DNA of 39,201 bases from a virus. The position numbers and the translations under genes were made by a program. The stretch lies in the UHGV virus genome UHGV-0121072, one strand, 5' to 3'. Shown piece by piece: positions 1,677 through 34,601 of this stretch (position 1 is the first letter of the stretch; each line of letters begins with the position of its first letter). Under the pieces are notes generated by a model that made no database searches, was not told the origin of the DNA, and saw nothing but the letters and a program-made list of their open reading frames with translations.

Positions 1677-1698
1677 CATCCCTAAGGTGATAGTTTAG
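1677..1698 (-). promoter_or_regulatory. Phage RNAP promoter-like element, variant (minus sense CTAAACTATCACCTTAGGGA), upstream of gene 4
   Basis: Matches the genome consensus except 2 substitutions at -4/-3; same position as a T7 gene 4 promoter. Confidence 0.4.
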
Positions 1699-1910
1699 GC
1701 TTTGAAGAACTGAGCCAACTGGTTGGCTTTGGTGTCAGCTTGACGTGCCTTCATGCCCGCTTCCAGTGACGCTATGTTCAACTTGTCAGCCCGCAGCAAA
1801 GCATCAGCCCGCAGCAAAGCAGTCTTCTTTTCTACCTTTCGTTCCAGAACCGCAGCACGACGATAGCCACGCACCACCAGACGACCGAGAAATTCGATAA
1901 GTTTAATCAT
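1695..1910 (-). CDS. Hypothetical 71-aa protein, predicted coiled-coil, contains tandem ALLRAD repeat
   Basis: ORF with ATG at 1910 and AAGGAG SD; lies between lysozyme and gene 4 where T7 has gene 3.8; no recognisable motif. Confidence 0.45.
   Translation of the reverse strand: MIKLIEFLGRLVVRGYRRAAVLERKVEKKTALLRADALLRADKLNIASLEAGMKARQADTKANQLAQFFKA
1787..1822 (-). repeat. 18-bp perfect-but-one tandem duplication (cagcccgcagcaaagca t/g) inside the 71-aa ORF
   Basis: Two adjacent copies seen directly; encodes ALLRAD twice. Confidence 0.8.
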
Positions 1911-1934
1911 TTAGTTGTTCTCCTTTAGAGTTTA

Positions 1935-2396
1935 TTAACCGTGGTCAGATGTAACCAGTTCATTCTTGGTCCACCATCGCTTCACGTCGAAACTCGGACA
2001 GGCTTTGGCTGCTACTGAATGATGGGCCATTAGCTCTGCATTAGGGTACTTACTCATAAGCTCCTCCAGCTTGATGCGTAGGGAGTTCATCTGAGCAGGA
2101 GTGAAGTTAGCTTCAAACTTGCCCTTAGCGTCAATTCCACCTACAAGGCAGACGCCTACAGACCGTGAGTTCCAGTCCTTAACGTGTGACCCTACGACAT
2201 TGACCGGGCGACCCTCTTCCACAGTACCATCGCGCTTGATGATAAAGTGGTAGCCTACGTCCAGCCAGCCTTGCTGCTTGTGCCACATACGGATGGTCTC
2301 TACCCCGATGTCCATCTCTGGCTTGGTAGCCGAACAGTGAACGAAGATAGCGTCAGTCCGGGACCGTGGGTTGAATTGCACCTTACTCACCATCAT
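1935..2396 (-). CDS. gp3.5: T7 lysozyme / N-acetylmuramoyl-L-alanine amidase
   Basis: 153 aa; DAIFVHCSATKP, WLDVGYHFIIKRDGTVE, VCLVGGID, KACPSFD almost identical to T7 gp3.5. Confidence 0.93.
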   Translation of the reverse strand: MMVSKVQFNPRSRTDAIFVHCSATKPEMDIGVETIRMWHKQQGWLDVGYHFIIKRDGTVEEGRPVNVVGSHVKDWNSRSVGVCLVGGIDAKGKFEANFTPAQMNSLRIKLEELMSKYPNAELMAHHSVAAKACPSFDVKRWWTKNELVTSDHG

Positions 2397-2787
2397 ACAC
2401 CACCAGTTCTACTACCACTAGATTCAGGTGCTGGGTGAATCTTTGTGCGTCCGTGGTGTGCATCTGGAGACGCTTATGATTGAAGACGTGTGAGTTGCTA
2501 ATCTTCACGTAAACTTCGTCAGGCTTGCCGTGGACGATGAACGTCTGATCCACGGCAATCTTGTCGATTGTCAGGCGCTTACTGGTGATGGAAACTTCAG
2601 GAACCGCAGTCACAGGGTGGACTTCAGGTTTCACTTCCTCAAAGCGCCAGCGGAACATACCGTTGATGAATTCGTGGTTCTCTTCGGTAGCAACAAAGGT
2701 CTCACCAATTGGCGCGCAGTACTTGCTTAGCATTTCCGCAACGGAACGGTTCCAAAACGTATTTAGAACACGATAAGTCTTACTCAT
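2383..2787 (-). CDS. Hypothetical 134-aa protein with no T7 counterpart
   Basis: ATG at 2787 overlaps gp3 stop (ATGA) with AAGGAG SD 8 nt upstream; the track's upstream M is a GTG. No motif recognised. Confidence 0.5.
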   Translation of the reverse strand: MSKTYRVLNTFWNRSVAEMLSKYCAPIGETFVATEENHEFINGMFRWRFEEVKPEVHPVTAVPEVSITSKRLTIDKIAVDQTFIVHGKPDEVYVKISNSHVFNHKRLQMHTTDAQRFTQHLNLVVVELVVYDGE

Positions 2788-3239
2788 CACTTAACTCCTT
2801 TCTTCTTTGGAATGAGTATACCTGAAGGCATACGTACAGTCGCCTCTCGAAGCCACTCAACCGGGATGAATTTATCGGCAAACTTAAAGCCGTTCTTTTC
2901 GCACCATGCGCCATACGTGGTCGGAGACCCTTTGTATAACTTGGAGCGTGAACTTGAGAACACGAACCGAATGTCTAACTCTGGGTGCTGTTCTTTAATC
3001 AATAAGTGCTTCTTACGGTCTTCCACTGCGAAGATTCCCTTGGTCTCCACAATGATGCCATTTGGTAGCACAAAGTCTGGACAATAGGTATGAAGGGATT
3101 GAGGGATTGTGTACGCTATTTTATACATCTCGTACTCAGCCTTAACCCCGTTCTTCTCCAGCCACTCTTGGTTTTTTGCTTCCAGTCCAGACCGATAGAT
3201 TCCTACCGAGTGTCCTCTACTCATGCTACGTGTCGCCAT
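2787..3239 (-). CDS. gp3: Endonuclease I (Holliday junction resolvase)
   Basis: 150 aa; YCPDFVLPNGIIVETKG, DRKKHLLIKEQHPELDIRFVFSSS, KFADKFIP match T7 gp3. Confidence 0.85.
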   Translation of the reverse strand: MATRSMSRGHSVGIYRSGLEAKNQEWLEKNGVKAEYEMYKIAYTIPQSLHTYCPDFVLPNGIIVETKGIFAVEDRKKHLLIKEQHPELDIRFVFSSSRSKLYKGSPTTYGAWCEKNGFKFADKFIPVEWLREATVRMPSGILIPKKKGVK

Positions 3240-3670
3240 GTTTCTCTCCTTAGTATCTTACCTATTGTTGGCTGAGACACTCCGTAGATTGTGGCGAGTT
3301 GTCGCTGAGTAAGGATCGAAGACCTAATTTCCTTGACTTTAGTGTCAGTAAGTTTTGACATACCGCACTTCTCTCCCGGAACATGAGGAGGGTTTACACC
3401 GCGCCCCTTGTTACGCATGTCCTGAAGGTTATCCAATTGGGTCCCTACAGTAAGATGCTCAGGGTTACAACACAGCGGAGTATCACAGGTGTGTAACAGA
3501 ACGCCATTAGGTTCTTCACCTGTAATAAGCTCGTAGGCTACGCGATGTGCAAGCATGGTTTTTCCATTGTACCTAATCTGACCGTAGCCTTTGTTGTTAA
3601 CGCAGCCAGTGAAAAGCCAGCAGCTACCTGAAACCACAAGTCTCTGCTTAAGGCTTTCTACTGTAGCCAT
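3221..3670 (-). CDS. HNH homing-endonuclease-like protein
   Basis: 149 aa; HNH-like HTCDTPLCCNPEHLT and C-terminal IYGVSQPTIGKILRRETWRH as in T7 small HNH proteins; sits between SSB and endonuclease I. Confidence 0.8.
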   Translation of the reverse strand: MATVESLKQRLVVSGSCWLFTGCVNNKGYGQIRYNGKTMLAHRVAYELITGEEPNGVLLHTCDTPLCCNPEHLTVGTQLDNLQDMRNKGRGVNPPHVPGEKCGMSKLTDTKVKEIRSSILTQRQLATIYGVSQPTIGKILRRETWRHVA

Positions 3671-4368
3671 TAGAAGTCGTAATCGCCACCAGAGTTGGAG
3701 TCGTCACCACCTTCGGAACAATCGTCACCAAAGTCATCATCCCCGAAGTCACCATCGGTTGACGCTTTGTATCCAGTGCCTAGGTCTTCATCATCACCCC
3801 AGCCGCCATCTCCACCAGCGCCATCACCTTTCCATTCCTTCAGCTCTACCAGAAGGCAGGACTCAAGCTGGAGCTTAACGCTTGCACCAGTCGCAGCGTT
3901 CCACTTGAACGGTAGGACTTTAAACTTTACCTTCAGCTTTGAGCCAGCGCCAATATTCGGGACGTCACGGATTAACTTAGCATCGGTGTCGTAGAACCGT
4001 AATACGATAGGCTCTGACTTACCATCCTTCAGGTAAGACGCAAAGCATTTGAACTTCATGGTAACAGTGCCATCACCGTTCTCAATCCACGGCATGTCGC
4101 CTTCACGCGGTTCAATAGGCTTCTTGCCACGCTGAACCTGAGGTGGGTTCTTCTCGTGGTCTGCGAGTGCTTTTGCATACGCATCGTCGTGAATCTTCTG
4201 TAAGACATCAATCATCTTACGGACCTTCGGGTTGCGCAGGTCGAATGTCAGGTTGACTTTGTGTTCACCACGCTCGTTAAACTTGGTGTCTGCTTTGTTA
4301 AGCCATGCGTAAGGCTCAACGATACCAGCTACCGGAGTGGTGAAAGTCTTCAGTTGCTCTTTAGCCAT
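3670..4368 (-). CDS. gp2.5: Single-stranded DNA-binding protein
   Basis: 232 aa, same length as T7 gp2.5, with acidic Gly/Asp-rich C-terminal tail ending ...GGDYDF. Confidence 0.92.
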   Translation of the reverse strand: MAKEQLKTFTTPVAGIVEPYAWLNKADTKFNERGEHKVNLTFDLRNPKVRKMIDVLQKIHDDAYAKALADHEKNPPQVQRGKKPIEPREGDMPWIENGDGTVTMKFKCFASYLKDGKSEPIVLRFYDTDAKLIRDVPNIGAGSKLKVKFKVLPFKWNAATGASVKLQLESCLLVELKEWKGDGAGGDGGWGDDEDLGTGYKASTDGDFGDDDFGDDCSEGGDDSNSGGDYDF

Positions 4369-4408
4369 CGGTGTAAATCTCCTAATTTAAAAGTTACGAA
4401 CTGGACGT

Positions 4409-4430
4409 CTGTCCTACAGTGATAGTTTAG
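4409..4430 (-). promoter_or_regulatory. Phage RNAP promoter (variant CTAAACTATCACTGTAGGAC) upstream of gp2.5
   Basis: Consensus copy with one substitution at -3; position equals T7 phi2.5. Confidence 0.55.
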
Positions 4431-4585
4431 GTCTCAGGACGAATCCGTCCGACCACAAACCCAGCGTCCTCATACTCTTGGGACTTCAGGGTAGCCTCTT
4501 CAAGAGACTTTGCGTACACCGGGACCTCGAAGGACTGAACGCTGCCCTCAAGCTCCACGATGTATTTCTTCTCTACGTCAGTCAT
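4427..4585 (-). CDS. gp2: Host RNA polymerase inhibitor
   Basis: 52 aa from ATG at 4585 (AAGGAG SD); [14 protein letters not shown] resembles T7 gp2 SFEVPIYAETLDEAL. The track ORF extends further upstream in frame. Confidence 0.7.
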
Positions 4586-4700
4586 AAATCTCCTTGTCGA
4601 GAATCTCTTCCAGCTTAACAAGTTCCTCTTTGGATAAATCAGTGAAGTCCACGTACTCCTTAATAAGCTGGCACACAAAGTTAATCTGGTCTTGGTTCAT
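4578..4700 (-). CDS. Hypothetical small protein (gp1.8 position), 40 aa
   Basis: ATG at 4700 with AAGGAG SD 9 nt upstream; the longer track ORF starts at a GTG. Confidence 0.35.
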
Positions 4701-4778
4701 AAACCGCGCTCCTTCCATTGGTTGTATAACGTAATGTAGTCCGGGTTGAGAGTCTTCTCGTACATCTCCCTGCACCAC

Positions 4779-5370: not shown

Positions 5371-5397
5371 GTCGGCCTCCTTAGGTCGAAGTTATGG

Positions 5398-5419
5398 TTG
5401 TCCTATAGTGATAGCTTAG
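5398..5419 (-). promoter_or_regulatory. Phage RNAP promoter (CTAAGCTATCACTATAGGAC) upstream of the gp1.6-like gene
   Basis: Consensus copy; position equals T7 phi1.5/1.6. Confidence 0.6.
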
Positions 5420-5435
5420 GGTCAGGATGGTGGCC

Positions 5436-5484: not shown

Positions 5485-6510
5485 TTAAATCTTGACTGTA
5501 GGATTATCCTCAGTCCCTCGCCATTGGTAGAATGACGGATGTCGCAAACTTCCATCTGGTGTCTCCTCCATGTAGGTAATCTGACAGGCCCAACCTTTGT
5601 AGTAATCTGGGTCTGACTTTACGTTCTCTGTGAACTCGGACATAAGGGCGCGACTAATGTTAGTTGCGGAGACCTCCATCCCGTTCTCGAGCATAACGTC
5701 GAAACCAATTACTAGACCTTCGTTTGCGAGACCTTCGGTTCCCCATACCGGGCGAACAACGTGACCGTCTGCCTCTTCGCTGGGCTTCATTTTCCACATG
5801 CCTGACTTCTTGCCACGCTTGTACTTACCCAGTGGGTCCTTGACCACCAGACCCTCATGTCCTTCAAGACGCTTCTGTTCGTACAGGGAGTTGAGCGACT
5901 CAAGGTCGTAGACCGTGTGTGACTCAGACAGAACCCAGTCGATTTCCGGGAAGTATTTCTGGAGGAGAGGGACGATAGCTTCGGCCTTCAGGCGTGTGAC
6001 GCTATGGATAGGACCTTCTGCTTTCGGGTCGGCAATGGTTGTCATGTCGACAATACCATAAACCACAACCTTAAGTCGTGACCGGGCGGCCCAGAACGGG
6101 ACCTTCTTGCCACGGTCCGGATAACATTCAGCGAACTCCTCGTTGCTGGGCTTGAGCCACTTGGTTCGAATGAGGCCTGAGGACGTATTAAAGTCCACAC
6201 CCTTGACCATGACCTCGCCATCAATCATTAGCCCGATACCTTCATAGCCAACTTGACGAAGGAACCACCGCCAGTCAGCCTGAGTCCACGCATTGCCTAA
6301 CTCAGAGTTCATCCACTCCAGTGCTGGCAGCGGTTTAGACTCACGACTTAACCAATAGGTCTCACCCTCTCGCAGCACCGGAAGATTCAACCGGACACCA
6401 TCGTACTTCACTTCAGCTTCCAGCGACCCAGCAGCTTCCAAAGCCTTCTTAATGCCAGACTCAGAGTAATCTACAGCGCGGTGCGGGTTGGTTTTGATAG
6501 TCATAGTCAT
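5485..6510 (-). CDS. gp1.3: ATP-dependent DNA ligase
   Basis: 341 aa; KxDGxR adenylation motif (EVKYDGVRLN), EGHEGLVVKDP, WKMKP, DGSLRHPSF match T7 ligase. Confidence 0.93.
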   Translation of the reverse strand: MTMTIKTNPHRAVDYSESGIKKALEAAGSLEAEVKYDGVRLNLPVLREGETYWLSRESKPLPALEWMNSELGNAWTQADWRWFLRQVGYEGIGLMIDGEVMVKGVDFNTSSGLIRTKWLKPSNEEFAECYPDRGKKVPFWAARSRLKVVVYGIVDMTTIADPKAEGPIHSVTRLKAEAIVPLLQKYFPEIDWVLSESHTVYDLESLNSLYEQKRLEGHEGLVVKDPLGKYKRGKKSGMWKMKPSEEADGHVVRPVWGTEGLANEGLVIGFDVMLENGMEVSATNISRALMSEFTENVKSDPDYYKGWACQITYMEETPDGSLRHPSFYQWRGTEDNPTVKI

Positions 6511-7013: not shown

Positions 7014-7033
7014 ATCCTATAGTGATAGTTTAG
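7012..7033 (-). promoter_or_regulatory. Phage RNAP promoter (CTAAACTATCACTATAGGAT) upstream of gp1.1
   Basis: Consensus copy; position equals T7 phi1.1. Confidence 0.7.
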
Positions 7034-7108: not shown

Positions 7109-7324
7109 TCATTTGGTCTGCTCCAGCTTGGACACTGCGTCTTTCAGGTATTTCTCGTGGCTGGATTCCACAAGATAGACGAGGGTCTTGAATGGGACGT
7201 TAAGCTGTTTTGACATCTCGGTAGGAATGACCGTGGTCTTCACCAGACCCTTGCCGTTGTGTTCTGTTACGGTCACGATTTGAGTCCCACCATTAACGCC
7301 GGTCTGCTTGTGTGCAAATTTCAT
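7109..7324 (-). CDS. Hypothetical 71-aa protein immediately downstream of the RNAP gene
   Basis: ATG at 7324 with AGGAGA SD; no motif recognised. Confidence 0.5.
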   Translation of the reverse strand: MKFAHKQTGVNGGTQIVTVTEHNGKGLVKTTVIPTEMSKQLNVPFKTLVYLVESSHEKYLKDAVSKLEQTK

Positions 7325-7336
7325 AACTCTCTCCTG

Positions 7337-10018
7337 TTAAGCGAATGCATAGTCTGAAGACAAGACGTCTTCGATATTCAGTTTACCTTTCTTCGGAAGC
7401 TCTGGCAGCTTGTCGCGCTGGCTCTCATGAAGCTGGTATTCAAACTGCTCATAGAAGTCAAGCAGCACATCGTTGTCGCGGTAGGTCTCGACCATCGTCT
7501 CACGGACGCCACGGAACAGATACTCAGCGTCAGCCGGGATGGTACCGAAGCTATCGTGAATCACTGCGAATGACATCACGCCATACTTGCGGTGAGTGTG
7601 GACTACAGTCTTGCGTAGGTGGCTACCATCTTGTGAGTGGACGAAGTTCGGGCTAATGCCTGACTCCTGCTTGTGCTTGTCCAGCTCTTTCTTCATACCT
7701 TTATTGACTGTAGGCTGAAGGTTGAATGACCCTAAGAACATCAGGTTCAGACGAGTGGTATCCTTCTTGCGGTATTCCTGCCAGACCGGGAACCCATCAG
7801 GTGTGACCCAGTGTACCGGAAGGCAAGGCTTCAGTATTTCTCCAGTCTTCTTGTCCTTCACTTCAGCAGCCAGCAGCTTGGCAGCACCTTGAAGCCACTT
7901 CATCACGTCAACCGCAGCAACTACGGTCCCGCTCACAGCTTCCCAAATCATCTTAGCCATGAAGCGAGACGCTTGGCTTGGCTCGGTGAACATAGCTCCA
8001 GACCCTGAGTCAATCGCTGGCATCACGATGTCATCGTATACTTGGTCTGCGAATCCGTACTCTTTCGACCCGTAGGCCAGAGTCATGACTGAACGCTTAG
8101 GGACCTTACGTGACATACCGTAGGTCAGCCACTGACGGGCCAGCTCTCGTGTCCCCAGCTTGAGACGCTCGGTAATCTCACCAGTTTTCTTGTCCTCGTG
8201 AGTCACAACCTCGTTATCTGTACCGTTAACCAGCAGGACTTTAAGCTCCTCCTCAATGCGATCAGACACGATGCGGTAGATGTCTTGGACCTTACCGGAT
8301 GGCGTCAGGTTCACTGCATGTCCACCAATGTGGTCACGAAGCATCGCGCTGAAGTGCTGAATCCCAGAGCAGGACCCATCGAACGCTATCGGCAGCGAGC
8401 AGGAGTAAGACAAGCCGTGGTGCATTACGCCAGCATACTCGAAGCAGAACGCAAGGAAGCAGAACGGAGAGTCTAACTTGCCCCACCACTCAATGCTATC
8501 CATCGGTGCCTTAGCAGCAGCCATGATGTTGTCGTGGTTATCTTCCACCCACTTGATGCGCTCCTCGAAGGTGACTTTATCGACACCCGCACAGTTTGCA
8601 CCGTGGACCTTCAGCCATTTGAAACCATCAGCACCAATAGGCTTACCGACTGCCAGAGTAAGGAGACCCTTCTGCATGTCGTTACCCTGAGGGTTGAACA
8701 TCGGTACAGCGTAGACTCGACCGCGCCAGTCCATGTTGTATGGGAACCAGATGGCCTTGAACTGAGAGAACTTGTTCGCTTGGTTAACGATAAAGCTCAG
8801 TGACAATCTGCGTGACTGCCGGGCCTTCTCTCGGCGGTAGATACCGGCAGCAGCTTTCTTCCATGCCTTGAGTTCCTCTTCAGTCTCACCCACATAGTCT
8901 TCAGGCTTCAGTGGCTCCATCTGAGGGATGTCGTCAATAGGCGTGTTGTTCAACTTCTCGACCATGTTCACCACGTCCAGAACCTTCTTGTTCACTTTCC
9001 AAGGTGTATTCTGGATGATGTTGACAGCGTCATAGACTTCAGGCATGTACACGTCTTCGTAACGTGCCACCGCAGACTTAGACCCTAAGCGAATCAATGG
9101 TAACGGTCTGCGACCTTTGGCCCAGTACCCGCCGCCTACGACACCCGTCCACGGCTTAGGTGGAACGACGCAAGGCTGATAGACTGGTGCGATACCCGCA
9201 AGGCTGAATCCACGTTGTGCCATCTTCTTGACCCAGAAGTCTGACAGGTGGACCATCTCAACATCAGCCGCTGCATTGCCAGCACCATAACGCTTAAGCT
9301 CGACCAGTTGTGTGGACTGGATGACAATCTCAAGCATCTTGATGCCAACATGGACCGCCTCGGTCGGACTCCAAGTTCCCCACGCATCTTCCAGTTGACC
9401 CTGCTCCAGCATGGAGGCCTCAACCGCTTGCATGTAGGCTTTCTTGTAGGATGCCCCAGCTCGCTTGTTCAGGTTCTCAGCTATCGCCTTCTTGAAGTGC
9501 TCCTTCTCCTTGTCACGGATGCGACCGAAGCGGATTTCGTCCTCAAGTGTGCGACCTATCGCTGAGGCCATCGGTGTAATCGGTATCCCTTCAGGCTTGA
9601 CCAGCTTGGAGAGGATGACCTTCAGTATAATAACTGCAGCAGACTCGCAAGAGATACGCAGAGAGCGGTCCTTGACGGCCTTCTCTTCAGTGCTCAACAT
9701 GGTGAACGCTACGCTAGGACGAGAGGTTGACAGCTTCCCGTCTGGACCTTCATGCCACTCCCGAACGGCTTGCGCAATCTTAGGGACCAGAGTCTGCATC
9801 AAAGGCTTGGCGACCTGATTGTCTGCCAGTTCCCCGCGCTCTGTCTGGCGCTCAAGGTTCTTGATGAAACGTCGCTCGCCTTCAGTGTATGCCTCATGCT
9901 CAAGCTGAAGCTGCTTGACTGCAAGGTCTTGCCCGTAGTGGTCAGCCAGCAGGTTAAACGGCTCAATGGCGTTCGACACATCAGAGAAGTCGTGTTTGTC
10001 AATAGAGATGACGCTCAT
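7337..10018 (-). CDS. gp1: Single-subunit DNA-dependent RNA polymerase
   Basis: 893 aa; aligns along its length with T7 RNAP (FPYNMDWRGRVYA, DGSCSGIQHFSAMLRD, RSVMTLAYGSKE, HDSFGT, C-terminal ...FAFA). Confidence 0.97.
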   Translation of the reverse strand: MSVISIDKHDFSDVSNAIEPFNLLADHYGQDLAVKQLQLEHEAYTEGERRFIKNLERQTERGELADNQVAKPLMQTLVPKIAQAVREWHEGPDGKLSTSRPSVAFTMLSTEEKAVKDRSLRISCESAAVIILKVILSKLVKPEGIPITPMASAIGRTLEDEIRFGRIRDKEKEHFKKAIAENLNKRAGASYKKAYMQAVEASMLEQGQLEDAWGTWSPTEAVHVGIKMLEIVIQSTQLVELKRYGAGNAAADVEMVHLSDFWVKKMAQRGFSLAGIAPVYQPCVVPPKPWTGVVGGGYWAKGRRPLPLIRLGSKSAVARYEDVYMPEVYDAVNIIQNTPWKVNKKVLDVVNMVEKLNNTPIDDIPQMEPLKPEDYVGETEEELKAWKKAAAGIYRREKARQSRRLSLSFIVNQANKFSQFKAIWFPYNMDWRGRVYAVPMFNPQGNDMQKGLLTLAVGKPIGADGFKWLKVHGANCAGVDKVTFEERIKWVEDNHDNIMAAAKAPMDSIEWWGKLDSPFCFLAFCFEYAGVMHHGLSYSCSLPIAFDGSCSGIQHFSAMLRDHIGGHAVNLTPSGKVQDIYRIVSDRIEEELKVLLVNGTDNEVVTHEDKKTGEITERLKLGTRELARQWLTYGMSRKVPKRSVMTLAYGSKEYGFADQVYDDIVMPAIDSGSGAMFTEPSQASRFMAKMIWEAVSGTVVAAVDVMKWLQGAAKLLAAEVKDKKTGEILKPCLPVHWVTPDGFPVWQEYRKKDTTRLNLMFLGSFNLQPTVNKGMKKELDKHKQESGISPNFVHSQDGSHLRKTVVHTHRKYGVMSFAVIHDSFGTIPADAEYLFRGVRETMVETYRDNDVLLDFYEQFEYQLHESQRDKLPELPKKGKLNIEDVLSSDYAFA

Positions 10019-10087: not shown

Positions 10088-10109
10088 GAGTCCTATAGTG
10101 ATAGTTAAG
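10088..10109 (-). promoter_or_regulatory. Phage RNAP promoter (CTTAACTATCACTATAGGAC) about 75 nt upstream of the RNAP gene
   Basis: Consensus copy with TTAAC variant also seen in two other copies; followed by two direct repeats gtctttcactt(a/g)(a/g)agtc in the leader. Confidence 0.6.
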
Positions 10110-10798: not shown

Positions 10799-11146
10799 CT
10801 ACACTTCCACCTCGATGGTTGTCATCTTGGTCACAGTAAGACCACCAGCAAGCTCAACCGCATAGCGTATCGCCTCCTCTTTGGACTTGAAGTCCTTTCC
10901 CGCAAGGTGGTATATGTCCCCTGTTATTACCTTAGATGGCCTGCGACTTACCGCAATAGCGTTTTCCATGGTAAGCTCACCACGGCTATACTGAGTAAAC
11001 CAGCGCTTCACCGAACTCGTCCCCACCCCGAACTTTTTGGCGGTTTCCGTCACCCTATCTATAACTCCCTCAGGCAGGGAGGTGTAGTAGTTAACAACGT
11101 TGAGTTTAAATGCTACCGAGAATACATTGCGAGTTTTAGCAGTCAT
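10799..11146 (-). CDS. Early protein with IS3/IS911 OrfA-type helix-turn-helix (HTH_Tnp_1-like), 115 aa
   Basis: N-terminus VFSVAFKLNVVNYYTSLPEGVIDRVTETAKKFGVGTSSVKRWFTQYSRG follows the IS3-family OrfA HTH pattern; no transposase catalytic domain follows. Confidence 0.55.
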   Translation of the reverse strand: MTAKTRNVFSVAFKLNVVNYYTSLPEGVIDRVTETAKKFGVGTSSVKRWFTQYSRGELTMENAIAVSRRPSKVITGDIYHLAGKDFKSKEEAIRYAVELAGGLTVTKMTTIEVEV

Positions 11147-12205: not shown

Positions 12206-12950
12206 TAGGAAATCTTAAATAATATTGATTAAGCTATCGTCGGCCCCATGGCGTAAGAGGATAGTCTTTGACTAACATGTATTAGACCTTAAGTCTATAG
12301 CTTTGTGTCTATTAGACTGTAGGTCTTTGACTGTAGGTAATGGCTTTACCGATGGTCGGTGACTGTAGGTTGTAGGACTGTAGGTTGTTGAGACCTATGG
12401 TTATACAGATAGGGACTCAGAGACAGACCAATAGTCCCTACCTATCGTCCTGACCTCCAGCCATAGCCTCTACCTATCGTTGACCAATAGTCCCACCTAT
12501 CGTTGACCAATAGTCCCACCTATCGTTGACCAATAGTCCCACCATCTGTCCAACCCTTATGATAGACTGGAGGTAGGGGCCACCCTTTGTCTGGACTGAA
12601 AGAGGGCCTATGGGGAGACTTGAGGTTCTTGAACTGTGAGATGTGGTCTCAAACTTTTGGTATAAAACTCATCGAAGACTGTAGGTGGCAGCTACTGTAG
12701 GTCAAGGACCGTAGGTCAGGCGACACTAGGATAGACCAATAAGTAGGATGACCCTAAGTGAGATTCTATTAAGGTGTTACCTAAAGTCCTTGACTACAGT
12801 ATCTAAGGTCAGTAGAGTAGCGTCAGCTATGAACTGACCTTAGGTCTTCAATGCGCGTATTCCCACTCCGTCTGATAATCTTCATCAGAGAACGACCCAT
12901 AAGACTCCTCGTCCATCCCTACCTCCTTTCGTTGATTGTTACCATGATTG
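12206..12950. repeat. Non-coding genome-terminus region with dispersed decamer repeats (plus-strand gactgtaggt and variants, at least 7 copies)
   Basis: No credible ORF; repeated decamers at 12315, 12329, 12361, 12377, 12677, 12693, 12707; position (between gene 19.5-like ORF and early promoters) equals the T7 terminal repeat/concatemer junction. Confidence 0.6.
12425..12551. repeat. Tandem repeat array, 23-bp unit acctatcgttgaccaatagtccc: 3 perfect copies (12472..12540) plus degenerate flanking copies
   Basis: Seen directly; contiguous identical units without spacers. Confidence 0.85.
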
Positions 12951-12952
12951 CG

Positions 12953-13111
12953 TTAATTACACTGAGACACCAGAGAACATACGAGAGTCTCGACCCACCC
13001 GACCCACTGACTTCCAGCAGTAACGCCAGCAGCAAGTAGAACAGCAGTAAGAAACCTATATGTAGCTCGATTGGTCGCCAGAGCTTTAAGTACAGCTTTG
13101 GTCTTTGCCAT
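12953..13111 (-). CDS. Candidate 52-aa membrane protein (gene 19.5 position)
   Basis: ATG at 13111 with AGGAGG SD; hydrophobic FLTAVLLAAGVTAGSQWVGWV; downstream of the terminal promoter as in T7. Confidence 0.3.
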   Translation of the reverse strand: MAKTKAVLKALATNRATYRFLTAVLLAAGVTAGSQWVGWVETLVCSLVSQCN

Positions 13112-13291
13112 ATGCTACATACCTCCTGTATCTATGGTCTGTGACTATCTGTATTGGAGGGATTATGATTAATATCACCCTCCTTCCATCGGTGCAAGCC
13201 TTAGGTAAGAACTCGGAGTCTGCCTCCTAAGGTCTTGCATAAAGTCTGCATATGTATATTCACTACAGTAATACTATAAGTAACCGGGGGT

Positions 13292-13313
13292 CTTCCCTAT
13301 AGTGATAGTTAAG
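13292..13313 (-). promoter_or_regulatory. Phage RNAP promoter (CTTAACTATCACTATAGGGA) after the terminase gene (phiOR-like)
   Basis: Consensus copy near the genome right end. Confidence 0.7.
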
Positions 13314-13408
13314 TCCAAACTCCTTGTAAAACAGTAGGTTAGACTGGTAGTAACTATAGGTTACTAACCGCGTATTAATGCAGCTTTCACCAATAGTTAT
13401 TCATTCAT

Positions 13409-15172
13409 CTAGTGGAACGTAACGTAGGACCCTAGTCCCAGCTCGTCGTCCGTATCGTGAGTTACCCGGACCCCATTGTCCCAGAACTCAGTGTGGATGG
13501 ACTCGAAGCCTTTCCGTGGGTTCTCCATCTGTTCCTCCAGCCACTCCTCAGTGACTTCACGTTCGCCTTTGTTGGCATCCTTAGCCATCGACTCAACGAA
13601 GAACTGTACACCGATAGCCAGCGCATCAAGTCGGTCATCGTGTGCCAAGGCTCCACGTTCACGAGAGATACGGGTCATCTGGTAGAAGAGAGAGTAGATA
13701 GGGTTACGAACACCATCCTTGTCAGAGGCTGTCTGGTAGTCTTGGACGATAGCAGCAGCGTTAACGATAAGTCGGTGAGACCCCATGATAGGCTCCAGAA
13801 CGTCACAGATGCGGAGTTCTTTCTGACCCTTACTCTTCACTTCAGTTACAGCAGCAGGATGGATACGGGCCGCTACAGGCTTGAATAGCTCAAGGTACAT
13901 ACCATCACCGAAGTTACCCTCAATGACGTATTCGTTGACCTTCCACTTATGACCAATCTTAGCCAGAGCTTCCAGAGTAGAGTCTTCGTATCCACCACGC
14001 ATACCACCAACCTCCATAGCGAAGATGTAGCCGTTGAGCTGGTACAATACCGCATAACCAGTTTCATCCTTACCACGACCACTAGGGTCAATGACCAGAA
14101 TCTTCTGGGTGTATGAGCTGAACGCAGAACCTACAGTCTGATACGTGTGGTACGAGTCACCAATGAGTCCAACGTTAGGAACGTCCTCACGCTTGTTCTG
14201 ATGGTTCGGCAACCATTGGTAGACCATTGGGCTAGACGCTGGGTCTAAGTCCGCTACGATAAGGTCACGGAGCTTCAGAGGGTATTTCTCGGCATCACTC
14301 AGGTTCGGGTTAAGCATGAACTGTAGAGCGAAGCCAGCTTTACCGTAGGACAGCTCACGTTCCTTCAGGTCAGTATCGTCGAATCGAACTTCATCGGTCG
14401 GACGCCAGTAGAAGGCCTCAGGGTCCTCTTCAAGCTCTGCCTGAAGCATAGGAGCCAGACGGTCTCCGTAAGACTGCCAGTCCTTCCTGTCGCGTGGATA
14501 ACGAGCAGGCCAGATAGTAGTGGTGTATCCACGGCCTTCTAGCTCACGATACAAGGTCATCTCGTTCTGAGGAGTACCCAGATAGATGATTGTACCTCCC
14601 GGCTTCAGGATAGCGTCGAACTCTTTCACAAGCTCTGACAGGCGGTCTCTTGCAGCCTGAGTCGCTGAGTTGTTCGGAACCTCAACGTCATCGGCAATCA
14701 GGATGTCAGCACGACTACCAGTCAACTGACCAGTGATACCAACTGACTTAACAGAAGGTGAGTGGTCAGGCTTGGCTGGCCCAACGTCGAAGCTAATAAC
14801 CGCATCTCGCTGTCCCTGCTTAGGTTTGAGTTCCTGAAGCTGAGGCATGAGGTCGATGATTCGCTTGATGAATATGGAGTTAGCATCAGCTCGTTCCTTT
14901 GAGGCAGACACAATCATGAACTTCAAGTCTGGGTTGTTCCATAGTTTCCAGACCACGAATGCACACGTAATGAAGGACTTCCCGATACCACGGAACGCCT
15001 GTAAGATGAAACGCCTGTTGTCCCCAGCCGATAGTTTCTTCGCCATGTCAATCTGACAGCGAGTCGGGACTGGGAGTGACAGAGCTTTCCATAGAACAAA
15101 CAGGAAGAACACGAAGTCTGCCTTCATACGGGCAGTCATTAGCGCCTGACGCGCCACTAAGTCTTTACTCAA
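13409..15172 (-). CDS. gp19: Terminase large subunit (TTG start)
   Basis: 587 aa; [73 protein letters not shown] match T7 gp19. Start codon at 15172..15170 is TTG with AAGGAGG SD 7 nt upstream. Confidence 0.93.
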
Positions 15173-15330
15173 GGTCTCACCTCCTTAGTTACCTTAAACC
15201 CAATCATCGTCGGGTTCTTACCGGAAGTCAGGGCCTCAGTAGCAACCCTGTAGGCAGACTCAATGCTTGTATAACGCCACCCAAGCATCTCAGAGCCGTC
15301 CAAGAACAGGTAGGTAGTCTTCCACATCAT
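15169..15330 (-). CDS. Candidate 53-aa protein between spanin and terminase genes
   Basis: ATGATG at 15330 overlaps the i-spanin stop with AAGGAGA SD; its TGA overlaps the terminase TTG start (TTGA). T7 has only a short gap here. Confidence 0.35.
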
Positions 15331-15773
15331 CTGGTCTCCTTATCTTGCTGTAAGGCTCTCACAGTGTCCTGAAGGGCCTTAATCCATTTGTCTCCTTTCA
15401 CTCCGATGGCGATAAGACGTTTAGCGTCTCGTTCGTCAAGTTCGGCGTAACCATCAATGACGCATCGACCGTCACTTTGCGTGGTTCCACTCGTTGGTTT
15501 GACTCGGATGCGCAACCGCTTATTGTCAGACTGAAGGTCAGCAATAATCCTATCAGTGCTGCCTTCCAGCGAGGACATTTCGTCCTGAAACCGTTTGGAC
15601 ACCTTGTTGACTTCAGCTTGGACAGCAAGTCTTGTATCCTCCGATGCCTTAAGATTCGAGGTGTATTCTGCATTGACCTTAGCCTCCCACTTATTGTTAG
15701 CGGTGTGGTAGCCGCCAGCAAACATCACTGCTGCAAGTAGCCACGGAGCCGCTCTCTTTAAAAATTCGAGCAT
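15327..15773 (-). CDS. gp18.5: i-spanin (Rz-like)
   Basis: 148 aa with N-terminal TM segment AAPWLLAAVMFAGGY and coiled-coil periplasmic part; GGGAGG SD. Confidence 0.8.
   Translation of the reverse strand: MLEFLKRAAPWLLAAVMFAGGYHTANNKWEAKVNAEYTSNLKASEDTRLAVQAEVNKVSKRFQDEMSSLEGSTDRIIADLQSDNKRLRIRVKPTSGTTQSDGRCVIDGYAELDERDAKRLIAIGVKGDKWIKALQDTVRALQQDKETR
15398..15673 (-). CDS. gp18.7: o-spanin (Rz1-like lipoprotein), embedded in the i-spanin gene in another frame
   Basis: ATG at 15673 with GGGAGG SD; lipobox LTISGC after hydrophobic ALIGLLLTFS; Pro-rich mature part. Confidence 0.7.
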   Translation of the reverse strand: MQNTPRILRHRRIQDLLSKLKSTRCPNGFRTKCPRWKAALIGLLLTFSLTISGCASESNQRVEPRKVTVDASLMVTPNLTNETLNVLSPSE

Positions 15774-16448: not shown

Positions 16449-18782
16449 TTATGCACTATTAGCGGGTCTGTCTAAGTACCATCCATAGTTTGTTTTAGTC
16501 AATTGTATAAGCTCCCCGTTTGTTTTGTATTGAGTAACACCAGACGCCGTATTGTACATTATCCTCTCATTAACATTAACGCCACCTCCTTGTTTGACAA
16601 GGGTAACTACTGTACGTGACGAGAGTGGGAGTATACGTATTGTTTTGCCTACATACCCACCAGTTATTTTAGTGATCGCCGAGCCAGAGGCCCCCGAATC
16701 GAGATACAATAAATCCACCGCATCGGCATCAATGGTAGAAACAACTGAGTTTACGGTAGAAGTTGTTGCAGCGTTTTCCCTTACGAAAGACGAGCCATTC
16801 CAGCGGTACATCAACCCATCCGACAGACCAATAACCTTCTCATTAACCCCAATATCAGGCGCGTAAGTTTTAGATGTATCCACTATTTTAAAAGTACCGC
16901 AAAACGGAACGGGGATAATATTCGAGCCAGTTAAACGGTTAACTGTATATAGGGAGTTATTGACAGTCCATTGCCTACCATTCCATACACTCATGAAAGC
17001 CCCTGACGACAAAAGAACCGTAGAACTATAGCCGGTTTCAACATGCGCAGATTCAGACAATAACCCTTTATCTTGTGGGTTACTGAAATCGTCAGTGCAA
17101 TCAAATAGTCTTAAGTTAGCGCGCCCCTCGAATTTTCCTGTAGAACCAACAGGGGCCACAACGAAAAGATAATCCTTATCAAAACCATAATCAGGGCCAA
17201 CGCGTAAGAACGACGCCATACAGTTAGTGGTAGGGAACTGCCCTTTTACAACCCACTTTCCACTAGAATCTTGCATTAATAGCTTTTGAATGGCTATTGT
17301 GTACGACTTAGTAGTGGTATCCGCAGCACGCTCAATAGCGAAAGGCGTTCCGTCATAAAAATTTCCGAAACCAATTTCACCACCAGATGTGCCTATAGTA
17401 TCGGTATCTGTGTCTTTCCTGACATCTTCACCATAAATATAATTGCCGTCTTCGTCAGTAGTTATATACCCTTCTACAATACCTGAAGAAATAGTAGTAA
17501 GGTAGTAATAGGGTATCGCAGGCCTGCCATTAATGTATCCTACTTGCGTTGGTGCGATAGATGAGAAATACGCACCTGCAGGCTTAACGGCGGATGTAAT
17601 ATCAACTGGCGCACTCCATGTCTCCCCCCGATCTTTAGATACGCAATATTCAATAGTGGATGTGTTGTCCGGGTTTGTGCCTTGTTGTGCGTGACCCCAC
17701 CCCGTAATCCCCTTCATTGATGTAAAGAAACAATACAAATAGCCATCAAGATTATTCAGGAATAGTACCGTTTCAGATGTGGCATACCCTGGACCTTTGT
17801 TAACAACAGTTCCAGTTGTCCAGTTCACACCGTTATCATCAGATATTAGGTAATCGATGTGCATAGGTGTACCGTCCTGTCCTGGGTCAATATTGGCACC
17901 ATCCTTCACTGTGTAGATGCATACCACCCTACCACCTGGAAGTGATACCGCTTTTGGTGCAAAGTTAAATACATTCTCTACATAAGTTTGCAACTGTAAG
18001 CTCAAATTATTGTTAAAGCTTCTTGAGTGTTTATTCCCAAAAGTGAAATTAAATCTATTTTTTGCAAATGATAGCCTTTTGTAAAGCTCAAAATCTTTAT
18101 CCTTGACCGCTCCGTTAACTAAATCAACTCCGTCATCACCAGCTAGGTCACTTCTTAAACTTGCATCGCCAACACTAACCCATGCGTCAGATGATTTAGG
18201 AGTTGAACCAGCAGGAACGTTCTTTGGAAGAGTACCGTCCCAGCGGTAATACTCACCATCCTCTTCCCATAGCAGGACCTCGTTCCATTTTGTAACGTTG
18301 AAGCCTTTCTCGAAGGAGCGGCGGGTAATATAGCCAAATAGACCAGCTTCCTTTATACTAGCAGCGATTCGGCGTGCTTCATCCTCGCTATCCTTAGCGT
18401 TGCCAGCAGAGCTACCAGCAGCCTCGGCATACTCCTTCGCCAAGTCAACCGTTTGGTCTCGACCTTCTTCTGCAATATGGATAGCCTGAAGCTCTGCATT
18501 GGTCAGGTCAATAGCTGTTAAGACTGAGCCATTCCTGAAGTCTACCACTAAGTCAGTTCCAGTCTGACGGTGAATACGAACGATGTCAAAACCTGATTGG
18601 TCAACCAACATCTCAATCATCGTTGGGTTAAGGAATCGGTAATCTCGACCAACTTCCAGTACACGGTTCAGGGTAGGGTTAGAGCTATTCACCAGCGTAA
18701 CAACAACAAACGTTCTGGCTAGGTAGTCGAACTCGATCCTGTACCGAGTGCTTCCTGAAGGGAATTGTGTAATCGTTGACAT
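16449..18782 (-). CDS. gp17: Tail fiber/tailspike: T7 gp17-like N-terminal anchor domain fused to a sialidase-like (Asp-box) C-terminal domain
   Basis: 777 aa; first ~150 aa resemble the T7 gp17 N-terminus (FDYLARTFVVVTL, LVDFRNGSVLTAIDL); C-terminal part has two Asp-box motifs SDDNGVNW and SKDRGETW. Confidence 0.88.
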   Translation of the reverse strand: MSTITQFPSGSTRYRIEFDYLARTFVVVTLVNSSNPTLNRVLEVGRDYRFLNPTMIEMLVDQSGFDIVRIHRQTGTDLVVDFRNGSVLTAIDLTNAELQAIHIAEEGRDQTVDLAKEYAEAAGSSAGNAKDSEDEARRIAASIKEAGLFGYITRRSFEKGFNVTKWNEVLLWEEDGEYYRWDGTLPKNVPAGSTPKSSDAWVSVGDASLRSDLAGDDGVDLVNGAVKDKDFELYKRLSFAKNRFNFTFGNKHSRSFNNNLSLQLQTYVENVFNFAPKAVSLPGGRVVCIYTVKDGANIDPGQDGTPMHIDYLISDDNGVNWTTGTVVNKGPGYATSETVLFLNNLDGYLYCFFTSMKGITGWGHAQQGTNPDNTSTIEYCVSKDRGETWSAPVDITSAVKPAGAYFSSIAPTQVGYINGRPAIPYYYLTTISSGIVEGYITTDEDGNYIYGEDVRKDTDTDTIGTSGGEIGFGNFYDGTPFAIERAADTTTKSYTIAIQKLLMQDSSGKWVVKGQFPTTNCMASFLRVGPDYGFDKDYLFVVAPVGSTGKFEGRANLRLFDCTDDFSNPQDKGLLSESAHVETGYSSTVLLSSGAFMSVWNGRQWTVNNSLYTVNRLTGSNIIPVPFCGTFKIVDTSKTYAPDIGVNEKVIGLSDGLMYRWNGSSFVRENAATTSTVNSVVSTIDADAVDLLYLDSGASGSAITKITGGYVGKTIRILPLSSRTVVTLVKQGGGVNVNERIMYNTASGVTQYKTNGELIQLTKTNYGWYLDRPANSA

Positions 18783-18828: not shown

Positions 18829-18850
18829 GTTTCCTATAGTGATAGTTTAG
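18829..18850 (-). promoter_or_regulatory. Phage RNAP promoter (CTAAACTATCACTATAGGAA) upstream of the tail fiber gene
   Basis: Consensus copy; position equals T7 phi17. Confidence 0.7.
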
Positions 18851-26097: not shown

Positions 26098-26147
26098 AAG
26101 GGCCTATAGTCCCTATAGTGATAGTTAAGGTAAATCTATAGGCCCTT
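26098..26147. repeat. Perfect 12-bp inverted repeat (AAGGGCCTATAG ... CTATAGGCCCTT) enclosing the phi13-like promoter
   Basis: Arms at 26098..26109 and 26136..26147 are exact reverse complements; the loop contains the promoter core. Confidence 0.8.
26108..26129 (-). promoter_or_regulatory. Phage RNAP promoter (CTTAACTATCACTATAGGGA) upstream of the gp13-position gene
   Basis: Consensus copy; position equals T7 phi13. Confidence 0.7.
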
Positions 26148-29437: not shown

Positions 29438-29478
29438 AAAAAAAAACCCTCAAGCACCCGAAGGCACCCAAGGGTTTT
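29438..29478 (-). terminator. Tphi-like transcription terminator after gene 10
   Basis: Minus-sense RNA ACCCUUGGGUGCC-UUCG-GGUGCUUGAGGGU (13-bp stem with G.U pairs, UUCG loop) followed by a run of 9 U; same position and style as T7 Tphi. Confidence 0.75.
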
Positions 29479-29488
29479 CATATAGTTA

Positions 29489-30777: not shown

Positions 30778-30799
30778 TCTCCCTATAGTGATAGTTTAG
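30778..30799 (-). promoter_or_regulatory. Phage RNAP promoter, best consensus copy (CTAAACTATCACTATAGGGAGACC), upstream of the capsid gene
   Basis: Position equals T7 phi10; carries the GGGAGA initiation sequence. Confidence 0.8.
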
Positions 30800-31686: not shown

Positions 31687-31757
31687 TGAGTCATTCTCCT
31701 TTGATTGAAATGGTAGGAACAACGGGACTAGAAACCTACAAATTGTAGACCAGACGT

Positions 31758-31779
31758 TGTTCCTATAGTGATAGTTTAG
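31758..31779 (-). promoter_or_regulatory. Phage RNAP promoter (CTAAACTATCACTATAGGAA) upstream of the scaffold gene
   Basis: Consensus copy; position equals T7 phi9. Confidence 0.75.
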
Positions 31780-33344: not shown

Positions 33345-33356
33345 CTACGTGCCTCC

Positions 33357-33605
33357 TTATAAAGAAATACCGCCACCAGAGGTACGAGAGACCTGAAGGC
33401 TACGCTTACCAGAACGCTTCACTTTCTTCTCATCAGATGCGGTTGTTTCAGTATCCACATCCTCCACTTTGTCGTTCGGTACTTCCACTGGTGCTGCTGG
33501 GGCCTGAGCCTCAACAACCTTAGGTGCATCGTCAGCTCCAAGACCAACGGTACCTAGCGTACTTTTCACCACTTTCTTGAATGCCTTACTGATTGATTTA
33601 CCCAA
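33357..33605 (-). CDS. gp7.3: Tail/ejection protein gp7.3-like
   Basis: 82 aa; MGK..., Lys-rich N-terminus and C-terminal SGGGI as in T7 gp7.3. Confidence 0.75.
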   Translation of the reverse strand: MGKSISKAFKKVVKSTLGTVGLGADDAPKVVEAQAPAAPVEVPNDKVEDVDTETTASDEKKVKRSGKRSLQVSRTSGGGISL

Positions 33606-34002
33606 GATTAATCTCCTTAGTTGTTACGATGTCTACCGACCCTGAAACATGCTTGACACGAGAATACCAGTCAAGACCCCAACGCTTGCACTCTTCGTTT
33701 ATGATGTGCCTGACAGTCTCAAGAACCTTGCGGGAGGACTGCGAGTCACGACGAATAGCGACGATTGAAAGGTCAAGACCGGGAGTCGGTCGGTGCCAAG
33801 ATGCGGTAGCCAGCATGTAGAGATACGCTACTGGTTGACCTGAGACATCGTAGATTGTGTACTCTTCACCGTCGAACTCGTCAGCCATACGGTAAGTATG
33901 AGCCTTGAAGTCCTCGAATGTCTTGAAGTTAGACTGCCCGTCTTCCCAGAGGCGACAAGCGCACATGTGGCGACCTTCGCGTGAGTTGAGATATGGTAGC
34001 AT
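33598..34002 (-). CDS. gp7: gp7-like virion protein
   Basis: 134 aa; C-terminal half resembles T7 gp7; start choice uncertain (weak SD at both candidate ATGs). Confidence 0.65.
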   Translation of the reverse strand: MLPYLNSREGRHMCACRLWEDGQSNFKTFEDFKAHTYRMADEFDGEEYTIYDVSGQPVAYLYMLATASWHRPTPGLDLSIVAIRRDSQSSRKVLETVRHIINEECKRWGLDWYSRVKHVSGSVDIVTTKEINLG

Positions 34003-34006
34003 TGTC

Positions 34007-34231
34007 TTACCCCATGTTTACGCCAGAGGCTCGCATAGCGCGGCTCACTGACGATTTATCTTTAGGTGCAGACTCCTTCTTGACCTTCAGGTCTTTGATA
34101 CCTTTGGTCTCGTTGATGTCCACATCCGATTCAGCCCCGATGTCAACTGACGCAACTTCCTCACTCAGAGGTGCTGGTTCAGGTGCTTGGACCGAAGGCT
34201 TCGGAGTGCTAATCTTCGGACTGAAACACAT
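34007..34231 (-). CDS. gp6.7: gp6.7-like virion protein
   Basis: 74 aa; N-terminal MCFSPKI and PEPAPL as in T7 gp6.7; AGGAGG SD. Confidence 0.75.
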   Translation of the reverse strand: MCFSPKISTPKPSVQAPEPAPLSEEVASVDIGAESDVDINETKGIKDLKVKKESAPKDKSSVSRAMRASGVNMG

Positions 34232-34245
34232 AGTCCCTCCTATAG

Positions 34246-34518
34246 TTAATCGAACTGAACGGTATCTTTCAGCTCACGACGCATAGCAATCGCAGAGTCT
34301 AGAGTGTCAGAGCAATACTGGAGACCCTTGATAAACCCGGCAATGAACGCATCGCTGTAGCCCTGCTGCTTGAGGAGACTAATAGCTCCCATCTTCTCAG
34401 CGTAGCTTGCGTTGAACAATACGTGCAGGAACTGGATGGCAGACTGGGAGATGTTCGGGACATCAAGTCTTTCTTCCTGTAACTGCTTAACAACGTTTTC
34501 AATAGCATTAATCGCCAT
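34246..34518 (-). CDS. Hypothetical protein (gp6.5 position), 90 aa
   Basis: ORF downstream of the phi6.5-like promoter with AGGAG SD; synteny only. Confidence 0.5.
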   Translation of the reverse strand: MAINAIENVVKQLQEERLDVPNISQSAIQFLHVLFNASYAEKMGAISLLKQQGYSDAFIAGFIKGLQYCSDTLDSAIAMRRELKDTVQFD

Positions 34519-34579
34519 CTTGAAGCTCCTCTTTAAGTTAAGACTAAAGTCTATCTTATAGTCATATCTTAGGTCCTAA

Positions 34580-34601
34580 AGTCCCTATAGTGATAGTTTA
34601 G
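34580..34601 (-). promoter_or_regulatory. Phage RNAP promoter (CTAAACTATCACTATAGGGA) upstream of the gp6.5-position gene
   Basis: Consensus copy; position equals T7 phi6.5. Confidence 0.75.

Follow-up and report, generated by a model that had tools for sequence, protein, structure and literature searches.

The closest described counterparts of the elements considered here are the promoters of phage K1F and its relatives in the genus Kayfunavirus of the T7 family. The promoter entries of GenBank record MZ726794 are described there as 'similar to (A/C)CTAAACTATCACTATAGGRAAA', the K1F consensus (Scholl and Merril 2005), and repeats of CTWAACTATCACTATAGG have been reported as promoters in another Kayfunavirus (PMC13298934). 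Purified RNA polymerase (RNAP) of Ro45lw, which belongs to the genus as a different species, transcribes in vitro from ACTTAACTATCACTATAGGGA with G as +1 (JBC 2025, PMC12272871). The K1F recognition loop has also been grafted onto T7 RNAP. The resulting T7(K1F) enzyme gave 17-fold induction in vivo with high orthogonality (Temme 2012; PMC3458549), and the loop and its promoter PK1F have served as an orthogonal part in synthetic biology since 2012, including the K1FR sigma fragment (Segall-Shapiro 2014; PMC4299498). Table 2 of PMC11880802 gives this graft as T7 RNAP 754S/756N/761V, cognate to ACTAT at -12 to -8. It is an engineered chimera, in which T7 supplies the remainder of the enzyme and all of the promoter except -12 to -7, and which has neither the natural MCTWA block at -17 to -13 nor the natural divergent N-terminal AT-rich recognition loop.

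The DNA analysed here (the window) is the virus genome UHGV-0121072 at its full length of 39,201 nucleotides, and it is a complete K1F-like Kayfunavirus genome, reverse-complemented and circularly permuted. Many deposited phages are about 94% identical to it. A check for an already deposited copy gave best matches of approximately 94–95% over 90–92% of a 25-kb query, and matches in IMG/VR are at most 97.6% identical, over short pieces. Judged by sequence comparison, the phage is a member of its genus in its own right, though an ordinary one. The proteins of K1F (NC_007456) are collinear on the window with about 85–100% identity for most genes. The host-range module differs, since gene 17 is shared over its N-terminal ~226 amino acids only, and some accessory genes differ as well.

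Eleven elements at gene boundaries

A search of both strands of the window with CTAAACTATCACTATAGG, allowing up to three mismatches, returns exactly 11 matches, all on the minus (coding) strand (Table 1), as the initial annotation had claimed. Five of these are exact over the 18-mer core, five have one mismatch and one has two. Only 0.01 matches are expected by chance and none of 100 shuffles reaches 11. When the circularised window was scanned on both strands with a weight matrix spanning -17 to +4, the scores were cleanly bimodal, with the 11 sites (29.3–35.0 bits) standing apart from everything else; the highest score elsewhere is 16.3 bits and the plus-strand maximum 11.4 bits. The 18-mer is thus not found at similar density on the plus strand, an outcome that had been named in advance as one that would speak against promoters, and the sub-cores CACTATAGG and AACTATCAC have no plus-strand occurrence in the window. 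No weaker promoter copies were found with the matrix; the sole sub-threshold site is the 16.3-bit one, at 34553–34573 in the phi6.5 leader. This degenerate copy was also considered as an RNase III-like hairpin and rejected, its fold being no stabler than those of shuffles (z = 0.19).

The whole element is approximately 23 bp long (-17 to +6, consensus MCTWAACTATCACTATAGGRA). Positions -11 to -5, -2 to +2 and several others are invariant across the 11 sites, all of which have A or C at -17 and a purine (R) at +3; -12 to -8 reads ACTAT in ten and GCTAT in one. The coordinates given earlier (1677, 4409, 10088 and so on) are four lower than ours because they included +3 to +6. All 11 sites lie at gene boundaries of a T7-order gene map and every one is oriented with transcription. 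The initial annotation had called them intergenic, which holds as to their placement between genes but not strictly, as four copies overlap the end of the preceding gene, whose stop codon is the TAA at -15 to -13 (genes 2, 'gp17', 8 and 16; ORF ends 4427, 1695, 31776 and 18847).

Table 1. Predicted promoters, polymerase gene, specificity-loop codons and terminator in the window
Feature	Position	Strand	Sequence and context	K1F counterpart
phi1	10092–10109	-	CTTAACTATCACTATAGG, T at -14; +1 G at 10093, RNAP start (10018) 75 nt downstream	2475–2492, identical 18-mer
phi1.1	7016–7033	-	exact 18-mer; after RNAP gene and gp06, before 1.1/1.2/ligase block	5553–5570
phi1.6	5402–5419	-	G at -12; between ligase gene and gene 1.6 (ATG 5370)	7184–7201, shares G at -12
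phi2.5	4413–4430	-	G at -3; TAA at -15 to -13 is gene 2 stop; gene 2.5 start 4368	8500–8517, shares G at -3
phi4	1681–1698	-	C at -4, T at -3; weakest match, 29.3 bits; TAA is stop codon of upstream 71-aa ORF; gene 4 (primase/helicase) downstream, start 1626, wraps across window ends	10867–10884, shares -4/-3 changes
phi6.5	34584–34601	-	exact; start GGGAC; gene 6 (exonuclease) upstream, gene 6.5 (ATG 34518) downstream	
phi9	31762–31779	-	exact; TAA is gene 8 (portal) stop; precedes gene 9 (scaffold)	
phi10	30782–30799	-	exact; only one of the 11 with full T7-like GGGAGA start; precedes major capsid gene (ATG 30663)	
phi13	26112–26129	-	T at -14; between genes 12 and 13; -16 to +6 is the Ro45lw promoter tested in vitro	
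phi17	18833–18850	-	exact; TAA is gene 16 stop; precedes tailspike gene (ATG 18782)	
phiOR	13296–13313	-	T at -14; after terminase gene 19; ~650 bp upstream of inferred genome end; -17 to +4 (ACTTAACTATCACTATAGGGA) is identical to the minimal promoter shown to work for Ro45lw in vitro	
Gene 1, single-subunit RNAP	7337–10018	-	893 aa; identity to K1F 98.4%, Ro45lw 94%, T7 63.7%	
Specificity-loop codons	7706–7759	-	window residues 754–771, T7 Q744–I761, read TTRLNLMFLGSFNLQPTV	
Tphi-like terminator	29442–29479	-	gene 10/gene 11 gap; 17-bp G+C-rich stem, then T run	

We read the eleven 18-mers, with a probability of roughly 0.97, as promoters of the middle and late classes in a K1F-type phage of the T7 family, recognised by its own RNAP. 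The window shows the features by which the T7 family is known, namely the ~23-bp element, the conserved -7 to +2 segment CACTATAGG, the position upstream of gene blocks and an encoded T7-like RNAP. Their putative promoter function and start site are carried over from the K1F-loop grafts and from the Ro45lw RNAP. Host sigma-70 promoters and chance matches we discount altogether as explanations of the repeats: no -35/-10 architecture is present at the repeats, sigma-70-like sites do not coincide with them and are not above shuffles in the window (17 vs 19.1 and 14 vs 15.8), and 11 copies were found against the 0.01 expected. Alternatively, the repeats could be a dispersed element of another kind, for example a signal for recombination, packaging or the origin of replication, whose likeness to T7 promoters is superficial. 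There is some precedent in T7, whose primary replication origin is overlapped by phi1.1A/B and whose concatemer processing requires phiOR, and individual copies here may likewise have second roles. As an account of the whole set a non-promoter element is very improbable, given the strict gene orientation, the placement directly ahead of gene blocks, the conserved initiation core and the fact that a 94%-identical RNAP, that of Ro45lw, transcribes from the same sequence.

The specificity block and the cognate polymerase

The specificity block was first described as AACTAT at -12 to -8. In the proper register -12 to -8 is ACTAT, with AACTAT spanning -13 to -8; the difference from T7 stands. The strings quoted with it for T3, K11 and SP6 belong to the -11 to -7 register, not to -12 to -8. 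The block is nevertheless unlike those it was compared with, being ACTAT against CGACT in T7 and against the K11-type block in AATTAGGGCACACTATAGGGA. The marks of the T7 group (Teseptimavirus), CGACT at -12 to -8 and R756 in the loop, are both absent, and the loop has N756.

A specificity-loop variant had been predicted in the cognate RNAP, and comparison of the loops bears this out: relative to T7 it carries Q754S, R756N and I761V and keeps R746, N748 and Q758. These substitutions are the ones listed in Table 2 of PMC11880802, and thus cognacy to ACTAT is supported; the T7(K1F)/PK1F pair has the same 754S, 756N and 761V and the same -12 to -8 block as the window. N748 is unchanged although -11/-10 differ from T7 (GA to CT), and the simple T7 contact map does not explain the residue-to-base reading at these two positions. 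The N-terminal AT-rich recognition loop is strongly divergent, with PDGKLSTSRPS in the window vs VKAK-RGKRPT in T7.

The window and K1F agree closely in both partners of the recognition. K1F also has 11 sites, syntenic with those of the window and paired with them one-to-one; each departure from consensus in an 18-mer is common to the two phages, -16 to +2 is identical at all 11 sites, and differences are confined to flanking bases outside -17 to +3 at a few sites. The consensus (A/C)CTAAACTATCACTATAGGRAAA, in the form in which MZ726794 attributes it to K1F, is matched by the sites of the window. About 22 IMG/VR contigs, almost all of ~39–40 kb, carry the exact 18-mer, mostly in several copies each. 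In Ro45lw the promoter is the same as phiOR of the window, and the same as phi13 from -16, and its loop differs from that of the window only in having L for M at T7 position 750. The in vitro transcription suggested in the initial annotation has in effect already been performed, with the 94%-identical Ro45lw enzyme.

Could the sites nevertheless serve a polymerase of a specificity other than that of K1F, that is, a new class? The two RNAPs differ at 14 of 893 residues, including T765M (T7 numbering) at the distal end of the specificity hairpin. The recognition segment corresponding to T7 Q744–I761 is, however, identical in the two, as are the promoters from -16 to +2 at all 11 sites, and position 765 varies in Ro45lw too, which has S for the window's M there and uses the same promoter. 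We regard a new class as exceedingly improbable. The specificity of the window is the fifth well-known class, that of K1F, which the initial annotation did not recognise. Its reading of the repeats as promoters, with a specificity other than those of T7, T3, K11 and SP6 and a cognate loop variant, is correct but already known, as the K1F/Kayfunavirus set has been published.

Transcription programme and comparison with T7

The class II/III promoters of T7 (TAATACGACTCACTATAGGGAGA) share with those of the window their length, architecture, -7 to +2 core and G start, and T7 has sites before genes 1.1, 1.6, 2.5, 6.5, 9, 10, 13 and 17 and at the right end, as does the window. The two sets differ in -12 to -8 (CGACT in T7, ACTAT here), in -17 to -13 (TAATA in T7, MCTWA here) and in number, with 17 sites in T7 and 11 in the window, where phi1 before gene 1 is an extra site that T7 lacks. 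The one-to-one mapping onto T7 promoters that had been proposed therefore holds in one direction: a T7 counterpart exists for ten of the 11 sites, while seven T7 promoters (phiOL, the second phi1.1, phi1.3, phi1.5, phi4c, phi4.3 and phi4.7) have none in the window by the weight-matrix scan. A terminator consensus scan of the window showed no overall excess over shuffles, and only the hairpin between genes 10 and 11 stands out; by analogy with T7 it would end most phi9/phi10 transcripts.

In the working that we propose, the early region and gene 1 would first be transcribed by the host RNA polymerase, after which the phage polymerase would fire from the 11 sites, rightward along the genome. Transcription would start at the first G of GG, and the RNAP of the window is predicted to initiate from CTAAACTATCACTATAGGGA templates. 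The -7 to +2 segment would act as the T7-family melting and initiation region, and the specificity loop, with Ser, Asn and Val at T7 positions 754, 756 and 761, would read ACTAT at -12 to -8 in the major groove. The near-consensus sites (phi6.5, phi9, phi10, phi13, phi17 and phiOR) would drive the structural genes and the off-consensus sites (phi1.6, phi2.5 and phi4) those of DNA metabolism, and phi1, upstream of gene 1, would probably exert positive feedback on polymerase synthesis. By analogy with T7, phi1.1 and phiOR may also serve in replication and packaging.

The variant copies noted earlier are all present: the sites at 10092, 13296 and 26112 carry T at -14, that at 4413 carries G at -3, and that at 1681 has C at -4 with T at -3. 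The G at -12 in 5402 is a further variant that the earlier list lacked. The relative strengths of the promoters are presumed from such departures from consensus, and the graded strengths suggested for the variant copies are plausible in the light of T7 class II/III promoters and fit the pattern across relatives. There phi1.6 has G at -12 or at -3, position -3 of phi2.5 is G or T, C at -4 is retained in phi4 and the late promoters are at consensus, in a sample that is biased toward consensus copies since the loci were fetched by exact consensus matches. Tentatively, and at slightly less than even odds, we combine three proposals: that the off-consensus bases encode promoter strength under selection and do not reflect drift, that phi1 provides feedback, and that the N-terminal loop reads the invariant C at -16 and T at -15. 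The K1F grafts based on T7 offer no test of contact between that loop and -16/-15.

The analysis places the window in Kayfunavirus and provides a ready transcription map of the phage, on which the cognate RNAP, 11 phage promoters and a single Tphi-like terminator are placed. What appeared as a 'new' specificity is the K1F class, already in use as an orthogonal RNAP/promoter pair. The value beyond correct annotation is small, with modest openings in the class II strength hierarchy, the feedback from phi1 and the natural recognition of -17 to -13.

Promoter copies and their placement

A search of the window with up to three mismatches returned 11 matches to CTAAACTATCACTATAGG, all on the minus strand, where 0.01 would be expected by chance and none of 100 shuffles approached 11; the eleven minus-sense copies of the initial annotation are thus borne out. 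Its positions denote the same sites and are 4 lower than the 18-mer coordinates used here, since they included +3 to +6. The exact 18-mer is found at five sites (7016, 18833, 30782, 31762, and 34584), three carry T at -14 (10092, 13296, and 26112), and single-site variants have G at -12 (5402), G at -3 (4413), and C-4/T-3 (1681). Information content across the 11 sites is approximately 2 bits over -16 to +2, and positions -17 (A/C), +3 (A/G), and +4 are partly conserved. A log-odds matrix derived from positions -17 to +4, run over both strands of the circularized window, scored the 11 sites at 29.3–35.0 bits and the next best sequence at 16.3, and the plus-strand maximum was 11.4; shorter cores, CACTATAGG and AACTATCAC among them, have zero plus-strand occurrences in the window. 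The repeat therefore does not occur at comparable density on the plus strand or inside genes, a pattern that had been named as speaking against a promoter.

All sites lie at gene boundaries, and the term intergenic is approximate because at 4 of the 11 the TAA at -15 to -13 also terminates the upstream gene, with a coding/promoter overlap of 3–4 nt. The proposed one-to-one map onto T7 promoters holds in one direction: T7 has annotated phage promoters at 10 of the 11 site positions (it lacks one directly before gene 1, where the window has phi1), whereas seven T7 promoters (phiOL, the second phi1.1, 1.3, 1.5, 4c, 4.3, and 4.7) have no counterpart in the window. A strong hairpin and the T-run behind it occupy the location of T7 Tphi. 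Within the transcribed leader, 10 nt downstream of phi6.5, lies CCTAAGATATGACTATAAGAT, a degenerate sequence resembling the promoter (16.3 bits); it is also kept in K1F and ASO2B and may be a decayed duplicate promoter. The predicted fold of the phi6.5 leader RNA is no more stable than those of shuffles.

Features of the window; promoter copies (lower coordinate of the 18-mer) run in transcription order
Feature	Position	Strand	Placement or product	Overlap with upstream stop codon
phi1	10092	minus	before gene 1	
phi1.1	7016	minus	after gene 1 and gp06	
phi1.6	5402	minus	between ligase and gene 1.6	
phi2.5	4413	minus	between gene 2 and gene 2.5	4427-4430 (gene 2, ORF end 4427)
phi4	1681	minus	before gene 4	1695-1698 ('gp17', ORF end 1695)
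phi6.5	34584	minus	before gene 6.5	
phi9	31762	minus	before gene 9	31776-31779 (gene 8, ORF end 31776)
phi10	30782	minus	before gene 10	
phi13	26112	minus	before gene 13	
phi17	18833	minus	before gene 17	18847-18850 (gene 16, ORF end 18847)
phiOR	13296	minus	after gene 19	
Degenerate copy	34553-34573	minus	phi6.5 leader	
Hairpin and T-run	29479-29442	minus	between genes 10 and 11	
RNAP gene	7337-10018	minus	893 aa	
Gene 4	1-1626 + 39136-39201	minus	primase/helicase	
Gene 17	16449-18782	minus	tailspike, 777 aa	
HNH ORF	3221-3670	minus	between gene 2.5 and gene 3, 149 aa	
DNA polymerase gene	36685-38892	minus	uninterrupted	
Early-region ORF	10799-11146	minus	115 aa	

The K1F promoter and its cognate polymerase

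The repeats are the K1F-type promoter known from the literature, with its cognate loop; the repeat set itself is confirmed and its function as promoters is supported. In K1F (NC_007456) this 18-mer likewise has exactly 11 matches, at syntenic positions, and every off-consensus base recurs at its site: T-14 in the copies preceding genes 1 and 13 and in the right-end copy, G-12 at phi1.6, G-3 at phi2.5, and C-4/T-3 at phi4. GenBank record MZ726794 (phage ASO2B) labels these elements promoters 'similar to (A/C)CTAAACTATCACTATAGGRAAA Enterobacteria phage K1F consensus sequence' (Scholl D and Merril C, 2005), and CTWAACTATCACTATAGG repeats are described as promoters of another Kayfunavirus in a 2026 paper (PMC13298934). 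The exact 18-mer also occurs in about 22 IMG/VR contigs, mostly in several copies each and nearly all of ~39–40 kb. The purified RNA polymerase (RNAP) of Escherichia phage Ro45lw (Kayfunavirus) transcribes from ACTTAACTATCACTATAGGGACT, with ACTTAACTATCACTATAGGGA as minimal promoter and G as +1 (Takatsuki et al., 2025; PMC12272871). This minimal 21-mer is identical to phiOR over -17 to +4 and differs from phi13 only at -17, and the in vitro transcription proposed earlier has therefore essentially been done, with the RNAP of a relative.

The RNAP of the window is 98.4% identical to that of K1F, 94% to that of Ro45lw, and 63.7% to that of T7, and it contains the loop variant that had been predicted. 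The segment matching T7 positions 744–761 reads TTRLNLMFLGSFNLQPTV, as it does in K1F; the changes from T7 that matter are Q754S, R756N, and I761V, and R746, N748, and Q758 are retained. Promoter recognition by T7 RNAP depends mainly on R746, N748, R756, and Q758 (PMC11880802), and Table 2 of that paper gives the graft '754S, 756N, 761V' of Temme et al. as cognate to ACTAT at -12 to -8, against CGACT for wild type. According to Temme et al. (2012; PMC3458549), T7(K1F) is active on the predicted promoter with 17-fold induction and is highly orthogonal; the pair was later reused as the K1FR sigma fragment and the PK1F promoter (Segall-Shapiro et al., 2014; PMC4299498). The retained residues fit the retained bases, C-7 and T-8 as in T7, and R756N goes with a C-to-A change at -9; a simple T7 contact map does not explain CT instead of GA at -11/-10, N748 being the same. 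The AT-rich recognition loop near the N terminus has diverged strongly from that of T7 (VKAK-RGKRPT in T7, PDGKLSTSRPS in the window), which parallels the change of the -17 to -13 block from TAATA to MCTWA.

Genome layout and gene content

Every long ORF of the window is encoded by the minus strand, the gene order follows that of T7, K1F proteins are collinear with the window, and megablast assigns it to Kayfunavirus (the genus of K1F-like phages within the T7 family) at ~93–95% identity to many deposited phages of Escherichia, Citrobacter, and others; no identical sequence was found among those fetched, the best short pieces reaching 97.6%. Gene 4 leaves at position 1 and resumes at 39201, and the window is therefore a complete genome, circularly permuted and reverse-complemented. 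The left ends of K1F and Ro45lw map to ~12641, and the right end of K1F falls at ~12861–12482. This implies that the direct terminal repeat is present once, collapsed near 12470–12641, an artefact that arises when a linear genome with repeated ends is assembled.

Only the N-terminal ~226 aa of the tailspike are common with the 1064-aa endosialidase of K1F, and its Pfam matches are the N-terminal domain of T7 tail fibres, Tail_spike_N, and, below threshold, a region of BNR/sialidase-like repeats. The receptor-binding module has apparently been exchanged, and the host capsule or O-antigen is then probably other than K1. The HNH homing-endonuclease ORF between gene 2.5 and gene 3 (PF13392, E = 1e-9) has no counterpart at that place in K1F and is positioned like T7 gene 2.8. 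Compared with the uninterrupted DNA polymerase gene of the window, K1F gene 5 (12921–15690) is annotated as two joined pieces around an HNH endonuclease insertion. The early-region ORF is unmatched among the K1F proteins tested and has weak helix-turn-helix matches under Pfam cut-offs (BrkDBD, E = 1e-4); judged from these, it may encode a small DNA-binding early protein.

Promoter variation among relatives

We aligned the regions homologous to each promoter from K1F, ASO2B, and IMG/VR pieces. Late promoters are near-invariant (phi6.5 identical in 21/21; phi17 in 19/21, the remaining two alignments ending at +5/+6), a figure biased toward the consensus at late sites as the loci were fetched via exact consensus matches. 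Middle promoters are always off-consensus in varying ways: phi1.6 has G-12 or G-3, phi2.5 has G-3 or T-3, and phi4 keeps C-4; at phi1, -14 and -3 are variable. Weaker class II promoters are known in T7, and the off-consensus middle promoters would be the pattern expected from selection for this weaker class.
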